Positions 23,024-32,571 of a stretch of 64,000 nt of DNA are shown here, in pieces. The stretch covers positions 4,514 through 68,513 of the forward strand of contig CANHPN010000008.1 of assembly GCA_947462535.1 (NCBI GenBank), given 5' to 3'. The position numbers were made by a program, and so were the translations under genes. Source of the stretch: Akkermansiaceae bacterium (lineage in GTDB: Bacteria; Verrucomicrobiota; Verrucomicrobiia; Verrucomicrobiales; Akkermansiaceae). The first letter of the stretch is position 1. Each line of letters begins with the position of its first letter. The notes beneath the pieces are model-generated. The model made no database searches and was not told the origin of the DNA. It saw only the letters and a list, made by a program, of their open reading frames with translations.

Positions 23024-23785
23024 TCACTCGCCTTGCAGCACCTCGACTCCGCGCCCCTGGAGTTTCTCGATGAACTCTTTGTCAGCGGCTTTGTCAGTGA
23101 CAAGGCAACTGAGGTCCGCGACTTCCGCGAAGAAGAAGGCGGCCTTTTGACCCAGTTTGGAATGGTCGGCGAGGAACACCACGTCCTCCGAGTTGGCGAT
23201 GACCCGCTCTTTAAAGGCTGCCTGCCGGGCGTTGCTCTCGCTGGCACCGCGTTCGAGATGGAGCCCGTTTCCCGAGAAGAACATCCGGTGGATGTTATAG
23301 CGTTGCAGGGACTTTTCGGCCGTCAGTCCGATGAACGAGCGCGACTTGGGGTCGAACAAACCGCCGGTGCAGATCAGGTCGAGATTCGGCCGGTCGGCCA
23401 GCGCGGTGAACACGTTGAGCGCGTTGGTCAGGATGGTGAGTGGCAGGTCCGGCAGGAATTCCGCGAGCGTCAACACCGTCGAGCTCGCATCGAGGAAAAT
23501 CGTCTCGTTCGCCTGGATCCGGCTCGCCGCCAGACGGGCGATCGCCTGTTTGTCCTCTCGCCGGATCGCCTGGCGCTCGGTGAAGGGGAGTTCTCCGCGG
23601 ATTCGCTCCGGACGGCTCGCCCCGCCGTGGGTCCGGATCAGCTCGCCGCGTTTCTCGAGGATTTCGAAATCCTTGCGGACGGTTTCATCCGTGACGCCGA
23701 GATCCGCCGCAGTCTCCATGGTGCGCAAAGATCCCGTTCCGTTGAGGAGTTCTAAAATCCGGCGTTGGCGGTCGATGGCGAGCAT
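23024..23785 (-). CDS. DeoR/GlpR-family transcriptional regulator of the BMC operon
   Basis: GVTDETVRKD HTH, RTHGGA, IFLDASST, LADHSK; divergent from the BMC genes. Confidence 0.92.
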   Translation of the reverse strand: MLAIDRQRRILELLNGTGSLRTMETAADLGVTDETVRKDFEILEKRGELIRTHGGASRPERIRGELPFTERQAIRREDKQAIARLAASRIQANETIFLDASSTVLTLAEFLPDLPLTILTNALNVFTALADRPNLDLICTGGLFDPKSRSFIGLTAEKSLQRYNIHRMFFSGNGLHLERGASESNARQAAFKERVIANSEDVVFLADHSKLGQKAAFFFAEVADLSCLVTDKAADKEFIEKLQGRGVEVLQGE

Positions 23786-23869
23786 GATTGGGGAAAATCT
23801 TTGTTTTGTTGGGAATTTTTGGTTTTTAAGTTGACTTGTCAATCATATCCAACAAAAACAAACCCACAG
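23786..23869. promoter_or_regulatory. Divergent promoter/operator region
   Basis: Inverted pair tttgttttgttggga (23800-23814) / tccaacaaaaacaaa (23848-23862); central near-palindrome TTGACttGTCAA (23831-23842) giving back-to-back -35-like boxes. Confidence 0.6.
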
Positions 23870-24550
23870 ATGGCCGCACCGATTTCCCAATCCACGCCCC
23901 GCGCAGTCGTTGAGCACCTTGTTCGGGAGCAAGTTTACGCCAGCATGGGGCTCTCCCTACCCGCCGCGTCGAAGGCTCCCAACGCGTTGCTCGTCAACAT
24001 TTCCGCCCGCCACTGCCACCTGACGCAGGCCGCCGTTGAAGCGCTTTTCGGTCCCGGACACCAGCTCACGCCAATGAAGGGTCTCTATCAAAACGGCCAA
24101 TACGCCGCCAAGGAGTCCATCACCCTCATCGGACCGCGCAGCCGGATCATTTCCAATCTCCGCATCCTCGGTCCCTGCCGGGATCTCAACCAGGTCGAGC
24201 TCGCCTACACCGACGCGATTTCCCTCGGCTTCGACATTCCGGTCGCCATGTCCGGCGCGATCAAGGGCACTCCCGGCTGCATGCTGATGGGCCCGCACGG
24301 TTATTTCCAAATGGACGAGGGCGTCATCCGCGCCCAGCCGCACGTCCACATGCATCCTGATGACGCCGCTTTCTACGGCGTCAAGCACCTCGACACCATG
24401 AAACTGAAAGTCCACGGCCCGCTTGCCATGACTTTCGACAAACTCGTCGTCCGCGTGGATCCCTCGTTCAAACTCGAAGTCCACATCGACACCGACGAGG
24501 GCAACGCCTGCGGCCTCAAGCCCGACACTTTCTGCGAACTCACCAAGTAA
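23870..24550 (+). CDS. pduL: PduL-type phosphotransacylase
   Basis: ISARHCHL, LRILGP.R...QVEL...DA..LG, HVHMHP.DA, EVHIDTDEGNA. Confidence 0.92.
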   Translation: MAAPISQSTPRAVVEHLVREQVYASMGLSLPAASKAPNALLVNISARHCHLTQAAVEALFGPGHQLTPMKGLYQNGQYAAKESITLIGPRSRIISNLRILGPCRDLNQVELAYTDAISLGFDIPVAMSGAIKGTPGCMLMGPHGYFQMDEGVIRAQPHVHMHPDDAAFYGVKHLDTMKLKVHGPLAMTFDKLVVRVDPSFKLEVHIDTDEGNACGLKPDTFCELTK

Positions 24551-24583
24551 TCTCAATCCAATCCCACATCACCAACTAACATT

Positions 24584-24856
24584 ATGAGCACTGCACTCGG
24601 CATGATCGAAACCAAAGGCTACGTCGGCAGCGTCGAAGCCACAGACGCAATGGCCAAAGCTGCCAACGTCGAACTTGTGAAACAAATCCAAACCGGCGGT
24701 GGCTTCCTCACCGTCCTCGTCAAAGGCGACGTCGGCAGCGTGAAAGCTGCCGTTGACGCGGGTGCCGAAGCCGCCGGTCGCGTCGGCGAACTGGTTTCCT
24801 CGCACGTCATCGCCCGGCCGCACGCCGAGCTCCTCAGCCAGTTCGGCATCGCCTGA
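24584..24856 (+). CDS. BMC-H shell hexamer protein 1
   Basis: ALGMIETKG, DAMAKAANV, GDVGSVKAAVDAG, VIARPH. Confidence 0.95.
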   Translation: MSTALGMIETKGYVGSVEATDAMAKAANVELVKQIQTGGGFLTVLVKGDVGSVKAAVDAGAEAAGRVGELVSSHVIARPHAELLSQFGIA

Positions 24857-24890
24857 TCCTCAATTCCAACCAATCTAACTTACCACTACC

Positions 24891-25169
24891 ATGGCCAAGC
24901 AAGCAATCGGCATTATCGAAACCAAAGGTTTCGTCGCCCTCATCGAAGCCTCCGACGCCGCCCTCAAGGCCGCCGATATCAAAATGACCGGCTGGGATAA
25001 AATCGGCTCCGGCCTTGTCACTGGTTTCTTCACCGGCGACGTCGCCGCAGTGAAAGCCGGCCTCGACGCCGCCGCTGCGGCCGGATCCAAGATCGGCACT
25101 GTCACCTCGGTGCAAATCATCCCGCGTCCGCACGACGACCTGTCGAAGCTCGGCACCTGGATCGCCTGA
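24891..25169 (+). CDS. BMC-H shell hexamer protein 2
   Basis: AIGIIETKG, DAALKAA, GDVAAVKA, IIPRPH. Confidence 0.95.
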   Translation: MAKQAIGIIETKGFVALIEASDAALKAADIKMTGWDKIGSGLVTGFFTGDVAAVKAGLDAAAAAGSKIGTVTSVQIIPRPHDDLSKLGTWIA

Positions 25170-25182
25170 TATTTTTCCGGCG

Positions 25183-25206
25183 TTTCAGTATTTCAGTATT
25201 TCAGCT
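25183..25206 (+). repeat. 8-bp tandem repeat (TTTCAGTA)2 TTTCAGCT
   Basis: Seen directly. Confidence 0.8.
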
Positions 25207-25215
25207 TCTATCAAG

Positions 25216-26391
25216 ATGCTCGTCCTCGTCGCCAACCTCGGCTCGACCTCCTTCAAATACCGCCTCTTCCGCATGGATGAGAGCGGTGGCGAGGTGGTTG
25301 CCAAGGGCGGCTACGAGCGGGTGACCGATCATGCCGTCGTCATCGAAGACGCCTTGGGGACGCTTCAACGCGACGGGATCATCGCCAGCCCGGATGAAAT
25401 CGACGCCGTCGGATTCAAGACCGTTTTGGGCAAGGATCTCAGCGGCTGCGTGATCGCCGATCAAAAGACGATCGACGCGCTCGACGGCTTCACTGCGGTC
25501 GCTCCCGCCCACAATCCGCCTTACGCGGCCGGCATCCGGCAGTTTGAAAAAGCGCTGCCTAACGCCCGCCTCGTCGCGCTGTTTGAAACCGCCTTCTATC
25601 AGTGGACCCCGCCGGCGTTTCACAGCTACGCCATCCCGCAAGCCTGGCGCGACATCGGCATCCGCCGCTATGGATTTCACGGCGCGAGCCACAAGTTCAT
25701 CGCCGAGCGCTCCGCCGAGCTTTGCGGCCGCGACGACGTCGCGGAAATCGCCCGCCGCCTCTATCTGGATGGTCCGCAAGTCGTCAGCGGCAAACCGTTC
25801 CGCGTCATTTCCTGCCACCTCGGCGGTTCCAGTTCTGTTACCGGGATCCGCGATGGCGTGGCCATAGGATCCAGCATGGGATTTTCCCCGCAAAGCGGAC
25901 TCCCGCAAAACAACCGCGTCGGCGATCTCGATTCCGCCGCGATTCCCTTCGCCATGCGCACGCTGGGCATCTCGCTCGACGAGGCCGAGCGCCAGCTCAC
26001 CAAGGAGTCCGGGCTCCTCGGATTGTCGGGTGTCTCTAACGACGCACGCGACATCAGGACAGCCGCCGCCGAGGGAAACACCGCCGCCCAGCTCGCGATC
26101 GACGCCAACGTGCATTCGATCCGCCACTGGATCGGTGCCTTCCTCGTCGATCTTGGCGGGCTCGACGCTCTCGTTTTCACCGCCGGTATCGGCGAAAACG
26201 GCGTGGAGACCCGTGCCGCAGTCTGCAAGGACCTCGAAGCGTTCGGCATCCATCTCGATTCCTCGAAGAACGCGGCCTGCCGCGCCACCGAGGCCGTCAT
26301 CAGCACCGATGACTCGCCCGTGAAAATCATCGTCATCCCGGCGAACGAGGAGCTCGTTCTTGCCCGCGAAGTCTATCGCAAGCTTTCCTGA
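25216..26391 (+). CDS. ackA: Acetate/propionate kinase family protein (BMC-associated, variant active site)
   Basis: NLGSTSFKY, APAHNP, YGFHGASH, CHLGGSSS, FTAGIGEN, ANEEL. Confidence 0.9.
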   Translation: MLVLVANLGSTSFKYRLFRMDESGGEVVAKGGYERVTDHAVVIEDALGTLQRDGIIASPDEIDAVGFKTVLGKDLSGCVIADQKTIDALDGFTAVAPAHNPPYAAGIRQFEKALPNARLVALFETAFYQWTPPAFHSYAIPQAWRDIGIRRYGFHGASHKFIAERSAELCGRDDVAEIARRLYLDGPQVVSGKPFRVISCHLGGSSSVTGIRDGVAIGSSMGFSPQSGLPQNNRVGDLDSAAIPFAMRTLGISLDEAERQLTKESGLLGLSGVSNDARDIRTAAAEGNTAAQLAIDANVHSIRHWIGAFLVDLGGLDALVFTAGIGENGVETRAAVCKDLEAFGIHLDSSKNAACRATEAVISTDDSPVKIIVIPANEELVLAREVYRKLS

Positions 26392-26434
26392 TTCTCATTT
26401 CACCTCTCACAACTCACACCAAACTAATACTACC

Positions 26435-26743
26435 ATGGCCAAACAAGCAGTTGGACTCCTCGAAACCCGCGGCCTCGCCTGTCTCGTCGTCGGCGTTGAC
26501 GCGATGCTCAAATCCGCAAACGTCGAACTCGTCGGACCGATGAAACAAGTCGGCAGCGCCCTTTGCAACGCGGTCGTCTCCGGCGATGTCGCCGCAGTGA
26601 AAGCCGCCCTCGATGCCGGCGCCGCCGCCGCATCCGAATCCGGTGAAGTCGTCAGTGCTCACGTCATCGCCCGCCCGGACGATGCGATCGAAGGCGTCCT
26701 GCCGAAGGATGCCGGTGCCGCCGCCCGCGCTCCGCGCAAGTAA
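26435..26743 (+). CDS. BMC-H shell hexamer protein 3
   Basis: AVGLLETRG, DAMLKSANV, GDVAAVKAALDAG, VIARP. Confidence 0.93.
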   Translation: MAKQAVGLLETRGLACLVVGVDAMLKSANVELVGPMKQVGSALCNAVVSGDVAAVKAALDAGAAAASESGEVVSAHVIARPDDAIEGVLPKDAGAAARAPRK

Positions 26744-26804
26744 TTCCTCAACGCCCCGTCCGCGATCCTAACTGGTCGCGGGCGGGGCCTACCCTCAAGC
26801 CCGG

Positions 26805-27113
26805 ATGTTTCTCGCAGAAGTCATCGGACAAGTCGTATCGACGAAAAAGGACGAGCTCATGGTGGGGAGGAAACTTCTCCTGCTCCGTCCCAAGCTCGTT
26901 GACGACAAGGATCCGTCAAAGTTCAAGGACGGCCAAAATACCATTGTCGCGATCGACACGGTGGGCGCCGGTGAGGGCGAGCTCGTGCTCTTCTGCCAGG
27001 GCAGCTCGGCCCGCGCCGCGCAAGGGCTGAAACTCATTCCGGTGGATGCCGCCATCGTCGCGATCATCGACCGCGTCGAAGTCCTCGGCAAAACCGTTTA
27101 CAAAGGCGGTTAG
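26805..27113 (+). CDS. BMC-P pentamer (EutN/CcmL family) 1
   Basis: MFLAEVIGQVVSTKK, VAIDTVGAG.GE.VL, PVDAAIVAIID. Confidence 0.93.
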   Translation: MFLAEVIGQVVSTKKDELMVGRKLLLLRPKLVDDKDPSKFKDGQNTIVAIDTVGAGEGELVLFCQGSSARAAQGLKLIPVDAAIVAIIDRVEVLGKTVYKGG

Positions 27114-27173
27114 TCCGGCCAGTCGATTTAACCGACCAGGCCTCGCGCCATTTTAACAATTTCAATTTCCCGC

Positions 27174-28655
27174 ATGAAAACTCTCGATCCAGAAACCCTT
27201 CGCTCCGTCGTAGAATCTGTCATCTCCCGTCTCGCAACTACCGGTGTCCAGACCCCGCCCGCAGCGGCACCCGCCGCCGCCAAATCATCCTCCTGCGGCT
27301 GCGGTTGCAGCGGTGAAGCCGGCCAACGCGGGGTTTTTACCTGCGTTGACAAGGCCGCCCACGCCGCCACCGACGCCCACCTCCAGTTGAAAAAACTCGG
27401 AGTCGCCGGCCGCGCCAAGGTGATTGAAATCGTCAAAGGCCTGGCCGTCGCGAATGCCGAGCCATGGGGCAAGTTCGAAATGGAGGAGACCAAGATCGGT
27501 CGCCTCGATCACAAGATCGCCAAGCTCCAGATCACCAAGAACGTCCCCGGCACCGAGTGGCTTCAGCCCTACGCAATGAGCGGCGACGGCGGCATCACGC
27601 TCGAGGAATACGCGCCCTTCGGCGTGATCGGCGCGATTCTGCCAGTCACTCACTCGGTCCCGACTCTCACCGGCAACGTCATCAACATGGTGGCCGCCGG
27701 AAATTCCATCGTCTTCAATCCGCATCCCGGTGGCGCCCGCAGCGCCGCCATGGCCGTGCGCGCCTACAACGAAGCGATCTTCCGCGAGATCGGTATTGAT
27801 AACATCATCACCACCATCGAGTCGCCTAGCATCGAGTCCTTCGACCTGCTCTGCAAGAACCCGCTCGTCAATCTGCTCGCCATCACCGGCGGTCCGGCGG
27901 TCGTCAACGCGGCGATGAAATCCGGCAAGCGCGCGATCTGCGCGGGTCCGGGAAATCCCGTGGTCGTCGTCGATGCCACCGCCGACCTTGCCCGCGCGGC
28001 CCGCAACGTCATTGAGGGCGGCGCGTTCGATAACAACCTGCTCTGCATCGGGGAAAAAGTCGTCTTCGTCGTCGGTTCCGTCTTCAACAAATTCTGTGAG
28101 GAACTCACCAAGGCGGGTGCCGCCCGCCTCAACTCGCAGGAACTCGAACGCCTCACCGCCGCCGCATTTACGTTCAAGCCCGGCGAAGGCGGTGGTTGCT
28201 CGCACGCCTCCGTCAACCGCGCCCTCGTCGGTGCCGATCCAGGCGTCCTCGCCCAGCACGCCGGAGCTAACATTCCCGCAGGCACCCAGCTTCTTTTCGC
28301 CGAGACCGACGCCGACCATCCGTTCGTCCAGGAAGAACAAATGATGCCGATGATGCCGATCGTTTCGGTGCCCGACTTCGAAACCGGTGTCCGCGAGGCC
28401 AAGCGCGCCGAGCACAACTACCGCCACTCCGCCATCATCCACACCAAGGACGTCGATCACATGACCTACATGGCCAAGGAAATGGACACCACCATCTTCG
28501 TCAAGAACGGCGCGTCCGTCGCCGGCCTCGGCCTCGGTGGCGAGGGCTATCTTTCTTACTCCATCGCCACCACCACAGGCGAGGGGATTACCACTCCCAA
28601 GACCTTCACCCGCGTCCGCCGCTGCGTGCTCGTGGAAAACCTCCGCATTGTCTGA
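27174..28655 (+). CDS. CoA-acylating aldehyde dehydrogenase (EutE/PduP-like) with N-terminal encapsulation-like peptide
   Basis: PFGVIGAI.P.TH, TGGPAVV, AGPGNP, FDNNLLCIGEK, EEQMMP; N-terminal DPETLRSVVESVISRL amphipathic helix. Confidence 0.93.
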   Translation: MKTLDPETLRSVVESVISRLATTGVQTPPAAAPAAAKSSSCGCGCSGEAGQRGVFTCVDKAAHAATDAHLQLKKLGVAGRAKVIEIVKGLAVANAEPWGKFEMEETKIGRLDHKIAKLQITKNVPGTEWLQPYAMSGDGGITLEEYAPFGVIGAILPVTHSVPTLTGNVINMVAAGNSIVFNPHPGGARSAAMAVRAYNEAIFREIGIDNIITTIESPSIESFDLLCKNPLVNLLAITGGPAVVNAAMKSGKRAICAGPGNPVVVVDATADLARAARNVIEGGAFDNNLLCIGEKVVFVVGSVFNKFCEELTKAGAARLNSQELERLTAAAFTFKPGEGGGCSHASVNRALVGADPGVLAQHAGANIPAGTQLLFAETDADHPFVQEEQMMPMMPIVSVPDFETGVREAKRAEHNYRHSAIIHTKDVDHMTYMAKEMDTTIFVKNGASVAGLGLGGEGYLSYSIATTTGEGITTPKTFTRVRRCVLVENLRIV

Positions 28656-28688
28656 TTTCAGTTTTCAGCTTTTCAGTATTTCAGCTTT
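28656..28688 (+). repeat. TTTCAG(C/T)N tandem repeat, about 4 units
   Basis: Seen directly. Confidence 0.8.
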
Positions 28689-28695
28689 TACCCCA

Positions 28696-28950
28696 ATGTT
28701 TCTCGCTCAAGTCGTCGGCCACGCGGTCAGCAGTCATTCCCACCCCTCCCTCAAGGGACACAAGATGATGCTGTGCCAGGCCATCGACCCCGAGCTCGGA
28801 CCGATCGGCGCGCCGATGGTCGCCATCGACCTCTTCGGAGCCGGCCTTCATTCGAAGGTGATGGTTTCCACCGACGGTCTCGGTGCCCGCCACATCGTCC
28901 ACGACGACAAATCTCCCATCCGCAACTTCATCCAAGGCATCGTTGATTGA
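28696..28950 (+). CDS. BMC-P pentamer (EutN/CcmL family) 2
   Basis: MFLAQVVGHAV, VAIDLFGAG...VMV, GIVD. Confidence 0.9.
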   Translation: MFLAQVVGHAVSSHSHPSLKGHKMMLCQAIDPELGPIGAPMVAIDLFGAGLHSKVMVSTDGLGARHIVHDDKSPIRNFIQGIVD

Positions 28951-28951
28951 G

Positions 28952-29057
28952 AAAAAGCTGAAAAGCTGAAAAGCTGAGAAAAGAAACCATGACACCCCAT
29001 TCACAGATTCAACGCTCTTCCATTTCAGCGTTTCAGCGTTTCAGCGTTTCAGCATTT
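28952..29057. repeat. Inverted pair of 8-bp repeat tracts: (AAAGCTGA)n at 28952-28983 and (TTTCAGCG)n at 29023-29057
   Basis: Seen directly; the two tracts are near reverse complements. Confidence 0.75.
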
Positions 29058-29065
29058 ACCCACTA

Positions 29066-29377
29066 ATGCGCGTAGCCCAAGTCATCGGTCGAGTGACCCT
29101 GAGTATCCAAGACCCCTCCTTCAAAGGCGGTCGCTGGCTCATGGTCAATCCGCTGGACGCAGGGCAATTCAACGACGCTTGCCAAAACGCACCGGCCCTA
29201 ACCAGCCAGTCCACCCTCGTCGCCTACGACAACATGGGCGCCGGAGACGGCGACATCGTCGGCATTGTCGAGGGTGCCGAAGCCACCGCGCCCTTTGATT
29301 TTCCAATCCCCATCGACGCCATCACCGTCGCCATTTTCGACTCGCTTTCCTACGAACCACCTTCACCTAACCGCTGA
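29066..29377 (+). CDS. BMC-P pentamer (EutN/CcmL family) 3
   Basis: MRVAQVIGRVTLS, VAYDNMGAG.GD, PIDA..VAIFD. Confidence 0.9.
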   Translation: MRVAQVIGRVTLSIQDPSFKGGRWLMVNPLDAGQFNDACQNAPALTSQSTLVAYDNMGAGDGDIVGIVEGAEATAPFDFPIPIDAITVAIFDSLSYEPPSPNR

Positions 29378-29382
29378 ACCAC

Positions 29383-30471
29383 ATGAGCAACAAAGTCTTC
29401 ACCGCCGCTGATATCGAAGCCCACCTGAAATCCGGGAAAACCGCTGCCGATCTCCCGAAAGGCTCGGTTCTCACGCCATCCGCCAAGGACGTCCTCCGCG
29501 ACGGCATCGGTCCGGTCCGCGCCGGTGGCTCATCTGCCAGTTCGTCCGCGCCAGCCGCCTACGCCGAGCCGATCCTTCCCGACTACGAGTTCAAGTGGAC
29601 TCCCGGCAAGGACCCGAAGACCCCGGCTGAAATCCACGCGTTCTTCCACTCACCGGCCATCGTCGAGCTCAAGCAGCGGATGGTCGACATCGGCAAGCGC
29701 ATGTGGGCCCGCGAATACACCGACGGCAATGGCGGCAACCTTACCATTCGCGTCGGCGACAACCTCGTGCTCTGCACTCCGACCCTCGTTTCCAAGGGTT
29801 TCATGACGCTCGAGCAAATGTGCCTGGTGGACATGGAAGGCGTCCAACTTGCCGGCAAATACAAGCGCACTTCCGAGTGCATGACCCACCTCGCGATCAT
29901 GAAGCGCCAGCCCAAGGCCAAGGCCTGCTGCCACGCCCACCCGCCGCACGGCACCGCCTTCGCCGTCGCCGGTGTCCAGCCGCCGACCTGCATGATTCCC
30001 GAAGCGGAAGTCTTCCTCGGTCAGATCGGTCTCTCCAAATATGAAACTCCCGGCACGCCCGCGAACGCGGTGGCTGTTGGAGATGCCGCCGTCGATCACA
30101 TGGCTGTTCTGATGGTCAACCACGGTGTCATCACCTGGGGCAAGGACATCGAGGATTCCTATTGGAAAATGGAAAACGTCGAGTCCTACTGCAAAACCAT
30201 CTGGGTCGCCTCGCAGCTCAACGGCGGCAAGCTTCTCACCATCACCGGTGGCCAGGCCAAGGAACTCATCGCGCTCCGAAAGGTGCTCGGCATGGAAGAC
30301 AAGCGCGCCAACTGGCAGGAATGCCAGCTCTGCGACAACGCCGAATTCAGCCCGGGCACCGTCTGCCAGATTCCTGACAAATCCGCTCCGTCCGGCGGCG
30401 GCAAGCTCGACCCGGAAGCGGAAAAACTCGTGCAAATGCTCACTGAGCAGATCCTGGCCGCGGTCAAATAG
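29383..30471 (+). CDS. Class II aldolase (fuculose/rhamnulose-1-P aldolase-like) with N-terminal extension and C-terminal encapsulation-like peptide
   Basis: GGNLTIR, TPT.VSKG, TSE...HL, HAHPP, NHG; C-terminal [20 protein letters not shown]. Confidence 0.92.
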
Positions 30472-30493
30472 TAAATCAGCTACACCACTTCTC

Positions 30494-31483
30494 ATGAAAA
30501 CTCCCATTACCGTCTCCATCACCGGCGCGGCTGGCCAGATCGGCTATGCGCTTCTTTTCCGCATCGCTTCCGGATTCGTCTTCGGCCCGGACCAGCCGGT
30601 CAACCTCCGCCTGATCGAGATCGAGCCCGGCATGGCGGCGCTCCAAGGAGTGATGATGGAGCTCGATGACTGTGCCTTCCCGCTCCTCAACGAAGTCGTC
30701 GGCACCTCGGATCTCAACGAAGGATTCAAGGGCGCGAACTGGGCGCTGCTCGTCGGCTCCGTGCCGCGCAAGGCCGGGATGGAACGCGCCGACCTGCTCG
30801 GCATCAACGGCAAGATTTTCACCGGCCAGGGCAAAGCGATTGCCAGAAACGCCGCGAGGGACGTCCGTGTGTTAGTGGTCGGAAATCCCTGCAACACCAA
30901 CGCGCTCATCGCCATGAACAACGCCGAGGGAATTCCGAAGGACCGCTTCTTTGCAATGACCCGGCTCGATGAAAACCGCGCCAAGAGCCAGCTCGCCAAG
31001 AAGGCCAGCGTGCATCAATCCAAGGTCACCAACCTCTGCATCTGGGGCAACCACTCGGCCACCCAGTATCCGGATTTCACCAACGCCAAGATCAACGGCC
31101 GCCCCGTCACCGACGTGATTTCCCACGTCGCATGGCTCAAGGGCGACTTCATCAGCACCGTCCAGCAGCGCGGTGCCGCCATCATCAAGGCCCGCGGCGC
31201 ATCCTCCGCCGCCTCCGCCGCGAATGCCGCGCTCGACACCGTGAAAAGCCTGATCACCCCGACTCCGGCCGGCGACTGGCATTCCGTCGCGGTCTGCTCG
31301 GACGGTTCTTACGGGATTGAAAAAGGCCTCATCGCCTCGATGCCGATCCGCACCATCGAGAACGGCAAATGGGAAGTCGTCCAAGGCCTGCCCATCGACG
31401 CGTTCAGCCAGGAGAAGATCGATCTCACCATCAGCGAGCTCATGGAAGAGCGCGACGCGGTGAAGCACCTGATTCCCGGCTGA
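30494..31483 (+). CDS. mdh: Malate dehydrogenase (cytosolic-type MDH clade)
   Basis: [44 protein letters not shown]. Confidence 0.93.
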
Positions 31484-31506
31484 GCCAACACGGTTAGTCT
31501 TTCCTG

Positions 31507-31542
31507 AAATGCCTGCTGCCATCCGGTGGCAGGCATTTTTTG
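31507..31542 (+). terminator. Rho-independent terminator ending the BMC operon
   Basis: aaatgcctgc...gcaggcattttt. Confidence 0.7.
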
Positions 31543-31543
31543 C

Positions 31544-32215
31544 TCAGCGGGTGCCCTCGTAAATGGTGACCACGCCGAGGGTGATCGGAGTGAAGTCGGT
31601 TCTTCCGAAGCCGCAGGTTTCGAGCAAGTCAGTCATCGCTCTGCCGGAGGGAAATTGCTCGATGGAGCCGCCGAGGTATTCGTAGGCGTCCTTCTGGCCG
31701 GTGAGCCAGCCCGCCATGTGCGGCAGGACGTGATGGAGATACCAGCGGTAAGGTCTGCGCAGGATGCCGTCGGGCAGCGAGAAATCCAGGATGACGAGGC
31801 GGCCGCCGGGCTTGAGGACGCGGTGCATCTCGCGCAGCGCGGCGGGGTAGTCCGCCATGTTGCGCAGGCCGAAGGCGACGGTGACGACGTCGAATTCCTG
31901 GTCTTTGAATGGCAGCTGCAGCGCGTCTGCAACGATGGTTTTCGCGATGCCGCGGCTGGCGGCGTGGGCGAGCATTTCCGCGCAGAAGTCGGAGGCGATC
32001 ACCTCGCACTGCGGGCACTCGTCCTGGATTTCCAAGGCAAGGTCGCCGGTGCCGCTGGCGACGTCGAGCAGGCGGGCGGGTTTCCATTTCCGGATGCGGG
32101 AGGTGACGACCTTGCGCCACCAAATGTCCATGCCGCAGCTCAGGACGTGATTGGTGAGCACGTAGCGGTCGGCGATTCTCGCGAAGGCATCATGGACGTA
32201 GACGGCATCGGGCAT
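31544..32215 (-). CDS. ubiE: UbiE/MenG quinone-biosynthesis methyltransferase
   Basis: YVLTNHVLS.G.D..WR, LDVASGTGD, VAFGLRN, AYEYL..SI..FP. Confidence 0.88.
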   Translation of the reverse strand: MPDAVYVHDAFARIADRYVLTNHVLSCGMDIWWRKVVTSRIRKWKPARLLDVASGTGDLALEIQDECPQCEVIASDFCAEMLAHAASRGIAKTIVADALQLPFKDQEFDVVTVAFGLRNMADYPAALREMHRVLKPGGRLVILDFSLPDGILRRPYRWYLHHVLPHMAGWLTGQKDAYEYLGGSIEQFPSGRAMTDLLETCGFGRTDFTPITLGVVTIYEGTR

Positions 32216-32358
32216 GCGGGATGGGTAAACCGGATGGGATTTCCGACAAGCGCGAAGTGCGGGCGGGATAAGATCCCGCTTTTCCGCCGCGCCGGGTCCT
32301 TGGAAATATCCTATTTTCCTCTTGCCAAGAGGGTGCCGATCCCTAGTTTGCCCGTCCC

Positions 32359-32571
32359 ATGCCAAGAGTCGGAGGAAAAGCAAAAACACGGAAAGCCGTT
32401 GCCAAGCGTTTCAAAGTCACTGGGACAGGGAAAATTCTTCGTCGGAAACAAGGGGCTCGCCACTTGTTGCAAGGCAAGAACAGCAAACGCAAGCGTCGTC
32501 TTGGCCAAGCTGCTCTCGTCTCCGATGCTGACCTTCGCAACGTCAGGGAGAATCTTCCTTTTTCCCGGTAA
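32359..32571 (+). CDS. rpmI: 50S ribosomal protein L35
   Basis: [23 protein letters not shown]. Confidence 0.95.

Follow-up and report, generated by a model that had tools for sequence, protein, structure and literature searches.

In operons of the Planctomycetes-Verrucomicrobia (PVM) type of bacterial microcompartment (BMC), the last gene, pvmO, encodes a member of the lactate dehydrogenase/malate dehydrogenase (LDH/MDH) superfamily. Two reference accounts (PMC4207490, PMC6620236) give the order of the preceding genes as DeoR regulator, PduL-type phosphotransacylase (PTAC), BMC-H, acetate-kinase-family protein, three BMC-P, aldehyde dehydrogenase (AldDH) and extended aldolase. According to PMC4207490, PVM loci hold no other candidate for regenerating NAD+ than the gene in the pvmO position, and the scheme of lactaldehyde disproportionation is repeated in PMC6620236. 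Here, we describe a PVM operon that ends in a gene for a dimeric malate dehydrogenase (mdh). It lies in a 64,000-nt stretch of DNA, referred to below as the window, from an Akkermansiaceae bacterium (assembly GCA_947462535.1, contig CANHPN010000008.1, positions 4,514 to 68,513 of the forward strand). The source is an uncultured, Luteolibacter-like lineage of freshwater metagenome-assembled genomes (MAGs), and the genome, G000 in our numbering, measures 2.82 Mb and is 95% complete.

By gene set and order, the locus is a standard PVM fucose/rhamnose microcompartment operon (Table 1), and the pvmA-pvmO locus of Planctopirus (Planctomyces) limnophila has the same set and order with the LDH/MDH-superfamily gene last. 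A class II aldolase with terminal extensions lies beside three BMC-H and three BMC-P genes, and the locus also carries the metabolosome core (acylating AldDH, PduL-type PTAC and acyl kinase) and a DeoR regulator. The co-directional run of plus-strand genes extends from 23765 to 31483 and is set off by the divergent DeoR regulator on the minus strand.

Identity of the operon-linked malate dehydrogenase

Judged by profile scores, motifs and solved relatives, the operon-linked enzyme is a canonical NAD-dependent MDH of the dimeric, 'cytosolic-type' clade (NF003916/TIGR01759), which is what an earlier, sequence-only reading of this DNA had proposed for the last gene of the operon. It scored 519.6 bits against the NCBIfam equivalog model NF003916 'malate dehydrogenase' (cut-off 271) and 479.5 bits against TIGR01759 (cut-off 345.65); it fell far below the cut-offs of the LDH models and also below that of the NADP-MDH model TIGR01757 (416 vs 598 bits). 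Its best solved relatives are dimeric MDHs, e.g., 6pbl and Thermus 1bmd/1iz9, and it aligns with solved MDHs over nearly its whole length (E 8e-126). The motifs GAAGQIGY and PRKAGMER are present, the alignment identifies Arg102, Arg109, Asp168, Arg171 and His195 (LDH numbering), and the motifs MTRLDENRA and IWGNHSAT align with the solved MDHs and with the housekeeping paralogue described below.

The arrangement of the operon end that had been read from the DNA, with mdh starting 22 bp after the aldolase stop, no terminator between the two genes and a terminator after mdh, was borne out by the open reading frame (ORF) coordinates, by folding and by a terminator scan. Exactly 22 nt separate the aldolase stop codon from the mdh ATG; the spacer region has no significant structure (folding free energy, dG, -9 kcal/mol, z +0.16 vs shuffled sequence), and no sigma-70-like or terminator-like site was found in it in a consensus scan. 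Downstream of mdh, a 15-bp hairpin runs into a U-run (dG -25.3 kcal/mol, z -3.6), and none of 200 shuffled sequences folded as well. The only oxidoreductases in the locus are the linked MDH and the AldDH. The reported lack of an alcohol dehydrogenase in the locus extends to the whole contig of the window, on which no Fe-type or Zn-type alcohol dehydrogenase gene was found.

A check that the earlier reading had proposed, namely whether this is the only mdh of the genome, gave a negative answer. Another contig holds an unlinked mdh (G000:C14:17255-18241, corresponding to L003:10253-11242, minus strand) whose 329-aa product aligns with the linked enzyme without gaps at 89% identity, with 35 of the 329 residues differing and the compared active-site motifs unchanged. 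This gene is alone on its strand, with genes for an RluD-like pseudouridine synthase, a GNAT acetyltransferase and lpxI as neighbours; the neighbourhood, which recurs in relatives, is a housekeeping setting. The possibility that one of the copies is an assembly or strain artefact was rejected, as their neighbourhoods differ, are well assembled and are reproduced in the related genome G001. Among the four closest genomes, the ratio of nonsynonymous to synonymous substitution rates (dN/dS) is 0.02-0.06 for the linked copies vs 0.06-0.09 for the unlinked ones; purifying selection on the linked copies is at least as strong as on the unlinked copies.

The pvmO position across Verrucomicrobiota and the origin of the linked copy

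An even sample of 401 Verrucomicrobiota genomes included 56 with a full-length PVM aldolase, and 41 of these 56 loci have an Ldh_1_C gene within ~1 kb after the aldolase. Based on score class and ORF length, 24 of the 41 were assigned to a PvmO class (~308 aa, LDH-like) and 17 to the dimeric MDHs (~330 aa), the sequences having been checked for 10 PvmO-class genomes plus G029 from the relatives' search and for seven dimeric MDHs. The 17 dimeric MDH loci belong to 15 genomes of one family (f11), one genome of another (G261, family f13) and the window.

The PvmO type carries Arg at specificity position 102, where LDHs have Gln102, in all 11 sequences read, which come from eight families and have the invariant loop AGLRRKPDESRLDLI. 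One of the PvmO-type sequences passes the cut-off of PRK06223, a subfamily model for MDH, the closest solved relative of the type is the LDH 1a5z, and its members are 67-89% identical across families. These proteins (P0001, with matches P0002-P0120) form a large, highly conserved family, with more than 100 clusters that share at least 75% identity. In public records, they are named L-lactate dehydrogenase or lactate/malate dehydrogenase family protein; the first of these annotations is probably systematically wrong, because Arg102 was found in every PvmO-type sequence read. In one genome, the PvmO-type gene after the aldolase (G270:C117:32562-33059) has a single in-frame TGA and may be a pseudogene or reflect a sequencing error.

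The window enzyme holds the pvmO position but, from its clade and loop, is no member of the PvmO type, against which it scores 29-42 bits compared with 430-506 bits within the type. The contrast with the described loci that the sequence-only reading had drawn therefore survives in part: the clade differs from that of the ~308-aa LDH-like gene (25.5% identity), but the 'LDH-like' PvmO is itself of the malate type, as indicated by Arg102. Both enzymes lie directly after the aldolase, have Arg102 and the same catalytic set, and lack terminal extensions. Unlike the PvmO-type loci, the operon in the window ends in a dimeric MDH (NF003916); PvmO belongs to the LDH clade and is probably of another quaternary type, whereas the window enzyme is a young copy of the MDH of its own genus. 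The linked MDHs of f11 and G261 are likewise canonical dimeric MDHs (~331 aa, with a PRK.GMER loop) encoded directly after the aldolase, although those of f11 stem from an older, separate duplication.

In an MDH tree from a quick rather than a careful search, a long stem leads to a separate clade of the PVM-linked MDHs of f11 (Shimodaira-Hasegawa-like approximate likelihood-ratio support 100), which share 68-70% identity with the unlinked MDH of their own genome. The linked copies of the window's genus, in contrast, fall within the MDH clade of that genus. These positions point to two separate recruitments, with which approximately unbiased (AU) tests agree. In four f11 genomes of 1.7-2.1 Mb (G112, G049, G165 and G267; loci L124, L125, L126 and L132), nothing but the PVM-linked dimeric MDH matches Ldh_1_C. 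In these small genomes, this enzyme has apparently taken over the housekeeping role, so the linked f11 enzyme is likely to be a working MDH. To judge by clade and specificity residue, MDH-type enzymes from three sources occupy the same position: an LDH-derived enzyme with Arg102, an older f11 MDH paralogue and a young copy from the window's genus.

Within the closer relatives, a search of 41 genomes found mdh in all and a PVM aldolase in 16. The mdh gene directly follows the aldolase in G000, G001, G004, G023, G021, G024 and G017, lies ~720 nt away in G011, and also follows the aldolase on a contig of G039, a genome binned in another family. All nine searched genomes with a linked mdh also hold an unlinked one. 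The PVM loci of G012, G009, G018 and G019 end at the aldolase. We also collected the 80 closest PVM loci, all from species-representative genomes of freshwater MAGs labelled Luteolibacter or Akkermansiaceae; with aldolases at least 75% identical, this set holds close relatives only and no Planctomycetes locus. A linked mdh is present in 26 of the 80.

Among 21 full-length linked loci, the spacer between aldolase and mdh measures 16-57 nt in 15, 189-204 nt in four, and ~720-730 nt with an intervening gene in two. The four spacers of intermediate length (L045, L048, L050 and L053) have sequence in common (e.g., a GACCAC.GA core), as if a small element had been inserted. Across the 21 loci, the DNA 3' of mdh belongs to at least 11 unrelated contexts, which indicates that mdh is itself part of the conserved block and marks its end.

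In a DNA tree, the mdh genes of the genus fall into three groups. In one, the unlinked copies of G000, G001, G004, G023 and G017 are joined by the single copies of species without PVM; in another, the unlinked copies of G009, G012, G018, G019 and G011 stand with every linked copy. The AU test rejected a recent duplication within the genome, which would place the linked and unlinked copies of G000 and G001 in one clade (p 8e-5), and it also rejected a single clade of all linked copies of the genus (p 6e-4); for the latter result, the groups compared were named after the tree had been seen, and gene conversion, as in the G011 pair, could contribute. In G000, G001, G009 and G014, mdh natively forms a divergent pair with a GNAT gene. 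In G438 (L055:2257-5063), the order is aldolase (+), GNAT (-), mdh (+), and this mdh, the only copy of its genome, keeps its native divergent GNAT partner. We regard the G438 arrangement as a likely intermediate between a native mdh and one taken up into the PVM block. From tree and arrangement, we infer that the linked copy arose within the genus and then travelled with the block: a PVM block beside a native mdh would have lost the GNAT gene, and block and mdh would have spread into species that kept their own copy. The PVM block with linked mdh in G039 (L033, G039:C27:20000-31806) is 82-92% identical to that of the window's genus, whereas the genome's own mdh is 73% identical; either the whole block was transferred horizontally or the contig was misbinned.

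Proposed redox role and competing explanations

We propose that the linked MDH balances the NADH of the organelle through an oxaloacetate/malate shuttle, to which, as a mechanism deduced from sequence comparison, we assign a probability of about one half. The linked MDH would be co-transcribed with the PVM operon and would re-oxidise the NADH formed by the AldDH by reducing oxaloacetate to malate. Reducing equivalents would then travel as malate to the unlinked MDH and to the respiratory chain, as in the peroxisomal malate/oxaloacetate shuttle, and all lactaldehyde could be converted to lactate with ATP formation, without half of it being sacrificed as 1,2-propanediol. Oxaloacetate could be supplied through phosphoenolpyruvate (PEP) carboxylase and the product of a pyruvate-carboxylase-type gene, both of which are encoded in the genome. 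Neither malate:quinone oxidoreductase (Mqo) nor ATP-dependent PEP carboxykinase was found in this 95%-complete genome, and, with no Mqo found, the role of outside partner in the shuttle would fall to the unlinked MDH.

The proposed analogy is with the MDH shuttles of peroxisomes and glyoxysomes (yeast Mdh3p, PMC5605654), in which NADH of a trapped NAD pool is re-oxidised by the conversion of oxaloacetate to malate. As in that system, a second MDH isoenzyme would act outside, in keeping with the two paralogues per genome; unlike the peroxisomal enzyme, which has a targeting signal and a shown location, the linked MDH has no such signal. No MDH-based recycling scheme for microcompartments was found in the literature searched.

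Malate-type dehydrogenases at the same place in relatives suggest that NADH is balanced by oxaloacetate/malate and not by propanediol formation, and among the explanations considered, this one fits the comparative pattern best. The sequence-only reading had taken the mechanism for a redox-balancing design different from that of the described loci, and this part is not borne out. PvmO has Arg102 in all sequences read, and PMC10583557 (citing Brochier-Armanet & Madern 2021) reports a reversion from LDH to MDH activity in P. limnophila and lists the LDH-clade enzyme concerned as an MDH; together, these two points make it probable that the oxaloacetate/malate idea holds for PVM loci generally, if it holds at all. 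The broadest form of the proposal, that PVM microcompartments in general do not disproportionate lactaldehyde but pass reducing equivalents out by a malate/oxaloacetate shuttle, a bacterial equivalent of that in peroxisomes, with MDH recruited to the pvmO position at least three times, is tentative and in our estimate falls a little short of even odds. If true, it would imply selection for oxaloacetate reduction coupled to the encapsulated AldDH.

Several observations weigh against a shuttle role of the linked MDH. Its co-transcription with the operon is suggested by the short spacing and by the absence of terminator and promoter consensus sequences, and the spacers of 189-204 nt in four related loci could hold a promoter. 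The linked MDH has no encapsulation-peptide-like extension, as had been noted before: it aligns end to end and without gaps with the other MDH of the genome (329 vs 329 aa) and lacks the N- or C-terminal amphipathic peptide, set off by a linker, of encapsulated cargo. Some BMC cargo enters by binding other cargo, so the linked MDH may be encapsulated despite the missing extension. No residue was found that distinguishes the linked copies from all unlinked copies of the genus. Candidate positions for a specialisation of the linked copy were rejected on this ground, since each of the eight enriched ones is shared with unlinked copies from the clade of origin, and the sequence thus gives no sign that the linked copy enters the shell. 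In addition, no LDH/MDH gene follows the aldolase in 43 of the 80 closest PVM loci, each with 1 kb or more of sequence beyond it, and the whole genomes of G012, G018 and G442 contain a single LDH/MDH-family gene, which is unlinked; a dedicated copy is accordingly dispensable. With the gene order of G438, mdh could have joined the block by accident, through adjacency. Finally, the assayed Planctopirus enzyme (UniProt D5SXK9) may be another protein than the pvmO product.

The best-surviving alternative, although we consider it unlikely, is that the additional MDH raises the cytosolic malate/oxaloacetate capacity during growth on fucose/rhamnose and has no direct role in the cofactor balance of the BMC. 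MDH induced with the operon would then help central metabolism to cope with the flood of dihydroxyacetone phosphate and lactate that passes through pyruvate/PEP to oxaloacetate. The lack of an encapsulation signal, the 89% identity to the housekeeping enzyme without residues specific to linked copies, and the many close PVM loci that manage without a linked copy are all consistent with such an effect, as is the presence of the PEP carboxylase and pyruvate-carboxylase-type genes. The small f11 genomes point the same way, their sole LDH/MDH-family enzyme being the linked MDH, which must serve central metabolism too. What a mere increase in dosage leaves unexplained is the Arg102 enzyme of the LDH clade that occupies the same position, despite a housekeeping MDH, in 24 sampled loci of many families, and the refilling of this position on two occasions by MDH paralogues.

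Still less probable is that mdh is a redundant passenger, acquired when a PVM block beside a native mdh, as in G438, lost the GNAT gene and carried mdh between species. The G438 gene order with its sole mdh copy, the native GNAT-mdh pairs of four genomes, the failure of the linked copies of G000 and G001 to be sisters of their own unlinked copies (tree and AU test) and the G039 block are what such a history would leave behind. A neutral passenger should decay or vanish, however, whereas the linked gene is intact in 26 species-level loci with the low dN/dS values given above; the tight spacing in most loci and the independent filling of the same position in other lineages also go unaccounted for. 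These 26 constrained loci and the repeated filling of the position by enzymes with malate determinants weigh against both a mere passenger and a simple dosage effect. Reduction of lactaldehyde to 1,2-propanediol with regeneration of NAD+, which the literature proposed for the gene in the pvmO position, is very improbable for the linked MDH: it is the only oxidoreductase of the locus besides the AldDH, and a disproportionation scheme for PVM has been published, but LDH/MDH-family enzymes anchor the substrate carboxylate on Arg171, lactaldehyde has no carboxylate, and the linked MDH has all 2-oxo-dicarboxylate-binding determinants and, in the motifs compared, the active site of a housekeeping MDH 89% identical to it.

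Gene layout of the operon and significance for PVM microcompartments

The features of the locus are listed in Table 1. The aldolase has an N-terminal extension of ~95 aa and a C-terminal linker whose end, read by eye, resembles an amphipathic helix and is thus encapsulation-peptide-like; a C-terminal encapsulation peptide has been described for PVM aldolases (PMC4594438). At 23765-23842, the longest ORFs of the DeoR regulator (-) and the phosphotransacylase (+) overlap at their 5' ends, so that at least one of the two genes must start at a more internal codon, which leaves the divergent promoter region without fixed limits. The Pfam profile match of the acetate-kinase-family gene (25216-26391) begins only at position 57, which indicates that the N-terminus is shortened or diverged.

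Table 1. Features of the PVM operon and its flanks (positions are those of the window)
Feature	Position	Strand	Evidence and remarks
DeoR-family regulator, pvmA position	23024..23842	-	PF00455 E 5e-47, PF08220 E 3e-15; start codon uncertain
Phosphotransacylase, PduL/PvmB type, with ~76-aa N-terminal extension	23765..24550	+	PF06130 E 7e-69, residues 77-252; NF011652 235 bits; start uncertain
BMC-H shell protein	24584..24856	+	PF00936 E 2e-27
BMC-H shell protein	24891..25169	+	PF00936 E 1e-24
Acetate/propionate-family kinase, PvmG position	25216..26391	+	PF00871 E 1e-94; TIGR00016 310.7 bits
BMC-domain shell protein	26360..26743	+	PF00936 E 3e-22, residues 30-106; true start probably later
BMC-P (EutN/CcmL) vertex protein	26805..27113	+	PF03319 E 3e-28
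CoA-acylating aldehyde dehydrogenase, PvmJ position, NADH-producing step	27174..28655	+	NF011927 566.8 bits (cut-off 403); PF00171
BMC-P vertex protein	28537..28950	+	PF03319 E 9e-21, domain from residue 54; true start probably near 28696
BMC-P vertex protein	29066..29377	+	PF03319 E 3e-18
PVM signature class II aldolase, 362 aa	29383..30471	+	PF00596 E 2e-41, residues 98-272
Aldolase-mdh spacer, 22 nt	30472..30493	+	Without hairpin or promoter-like site
Operon-linked mdh, 329 aa, canonical dimeric NAD-MDH with Arg102 (by sequence)	30494..31483	+	NF003916 519.6 bits
Intrinsic terminator, hairpin and U-run	31506..31539	+	Folding and terminator scan
ubiE-type methyltransferase gene, convergent, terminator common to both	31544-32389	-	Its end lies just beyond the hairpin

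NAD+ recycling in catabolic microcompartments is a central question for these organelles, and the PVM type is abundant, with 285 loci in a 2021 catalogue (PMC8217296). For PVM, the accepted answer takes the last gene to encode a lactaldehyde reductase, which is an untested assignment. The feature described here is real and consists of an ordinary enzyme in a telling place. What is new is the repeated refilling of the pvmO position by canonical MDH paralogues, the pattern of two copies per genome and the way in which the young copy probably came about. The genus offers a natural experiment, in which the position lost its gene in most species and a plain MDH later took it over, while enzymes with malate determinants occupy it in other lineages. 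The malate/oxaloacetate hypothesis predicts that aerobic degraders of fucose and rhamnose would convert lactaldehyde fully to lactate with ATP formation, and it would suggest a simple cofactor-recycling module for engineered shells.

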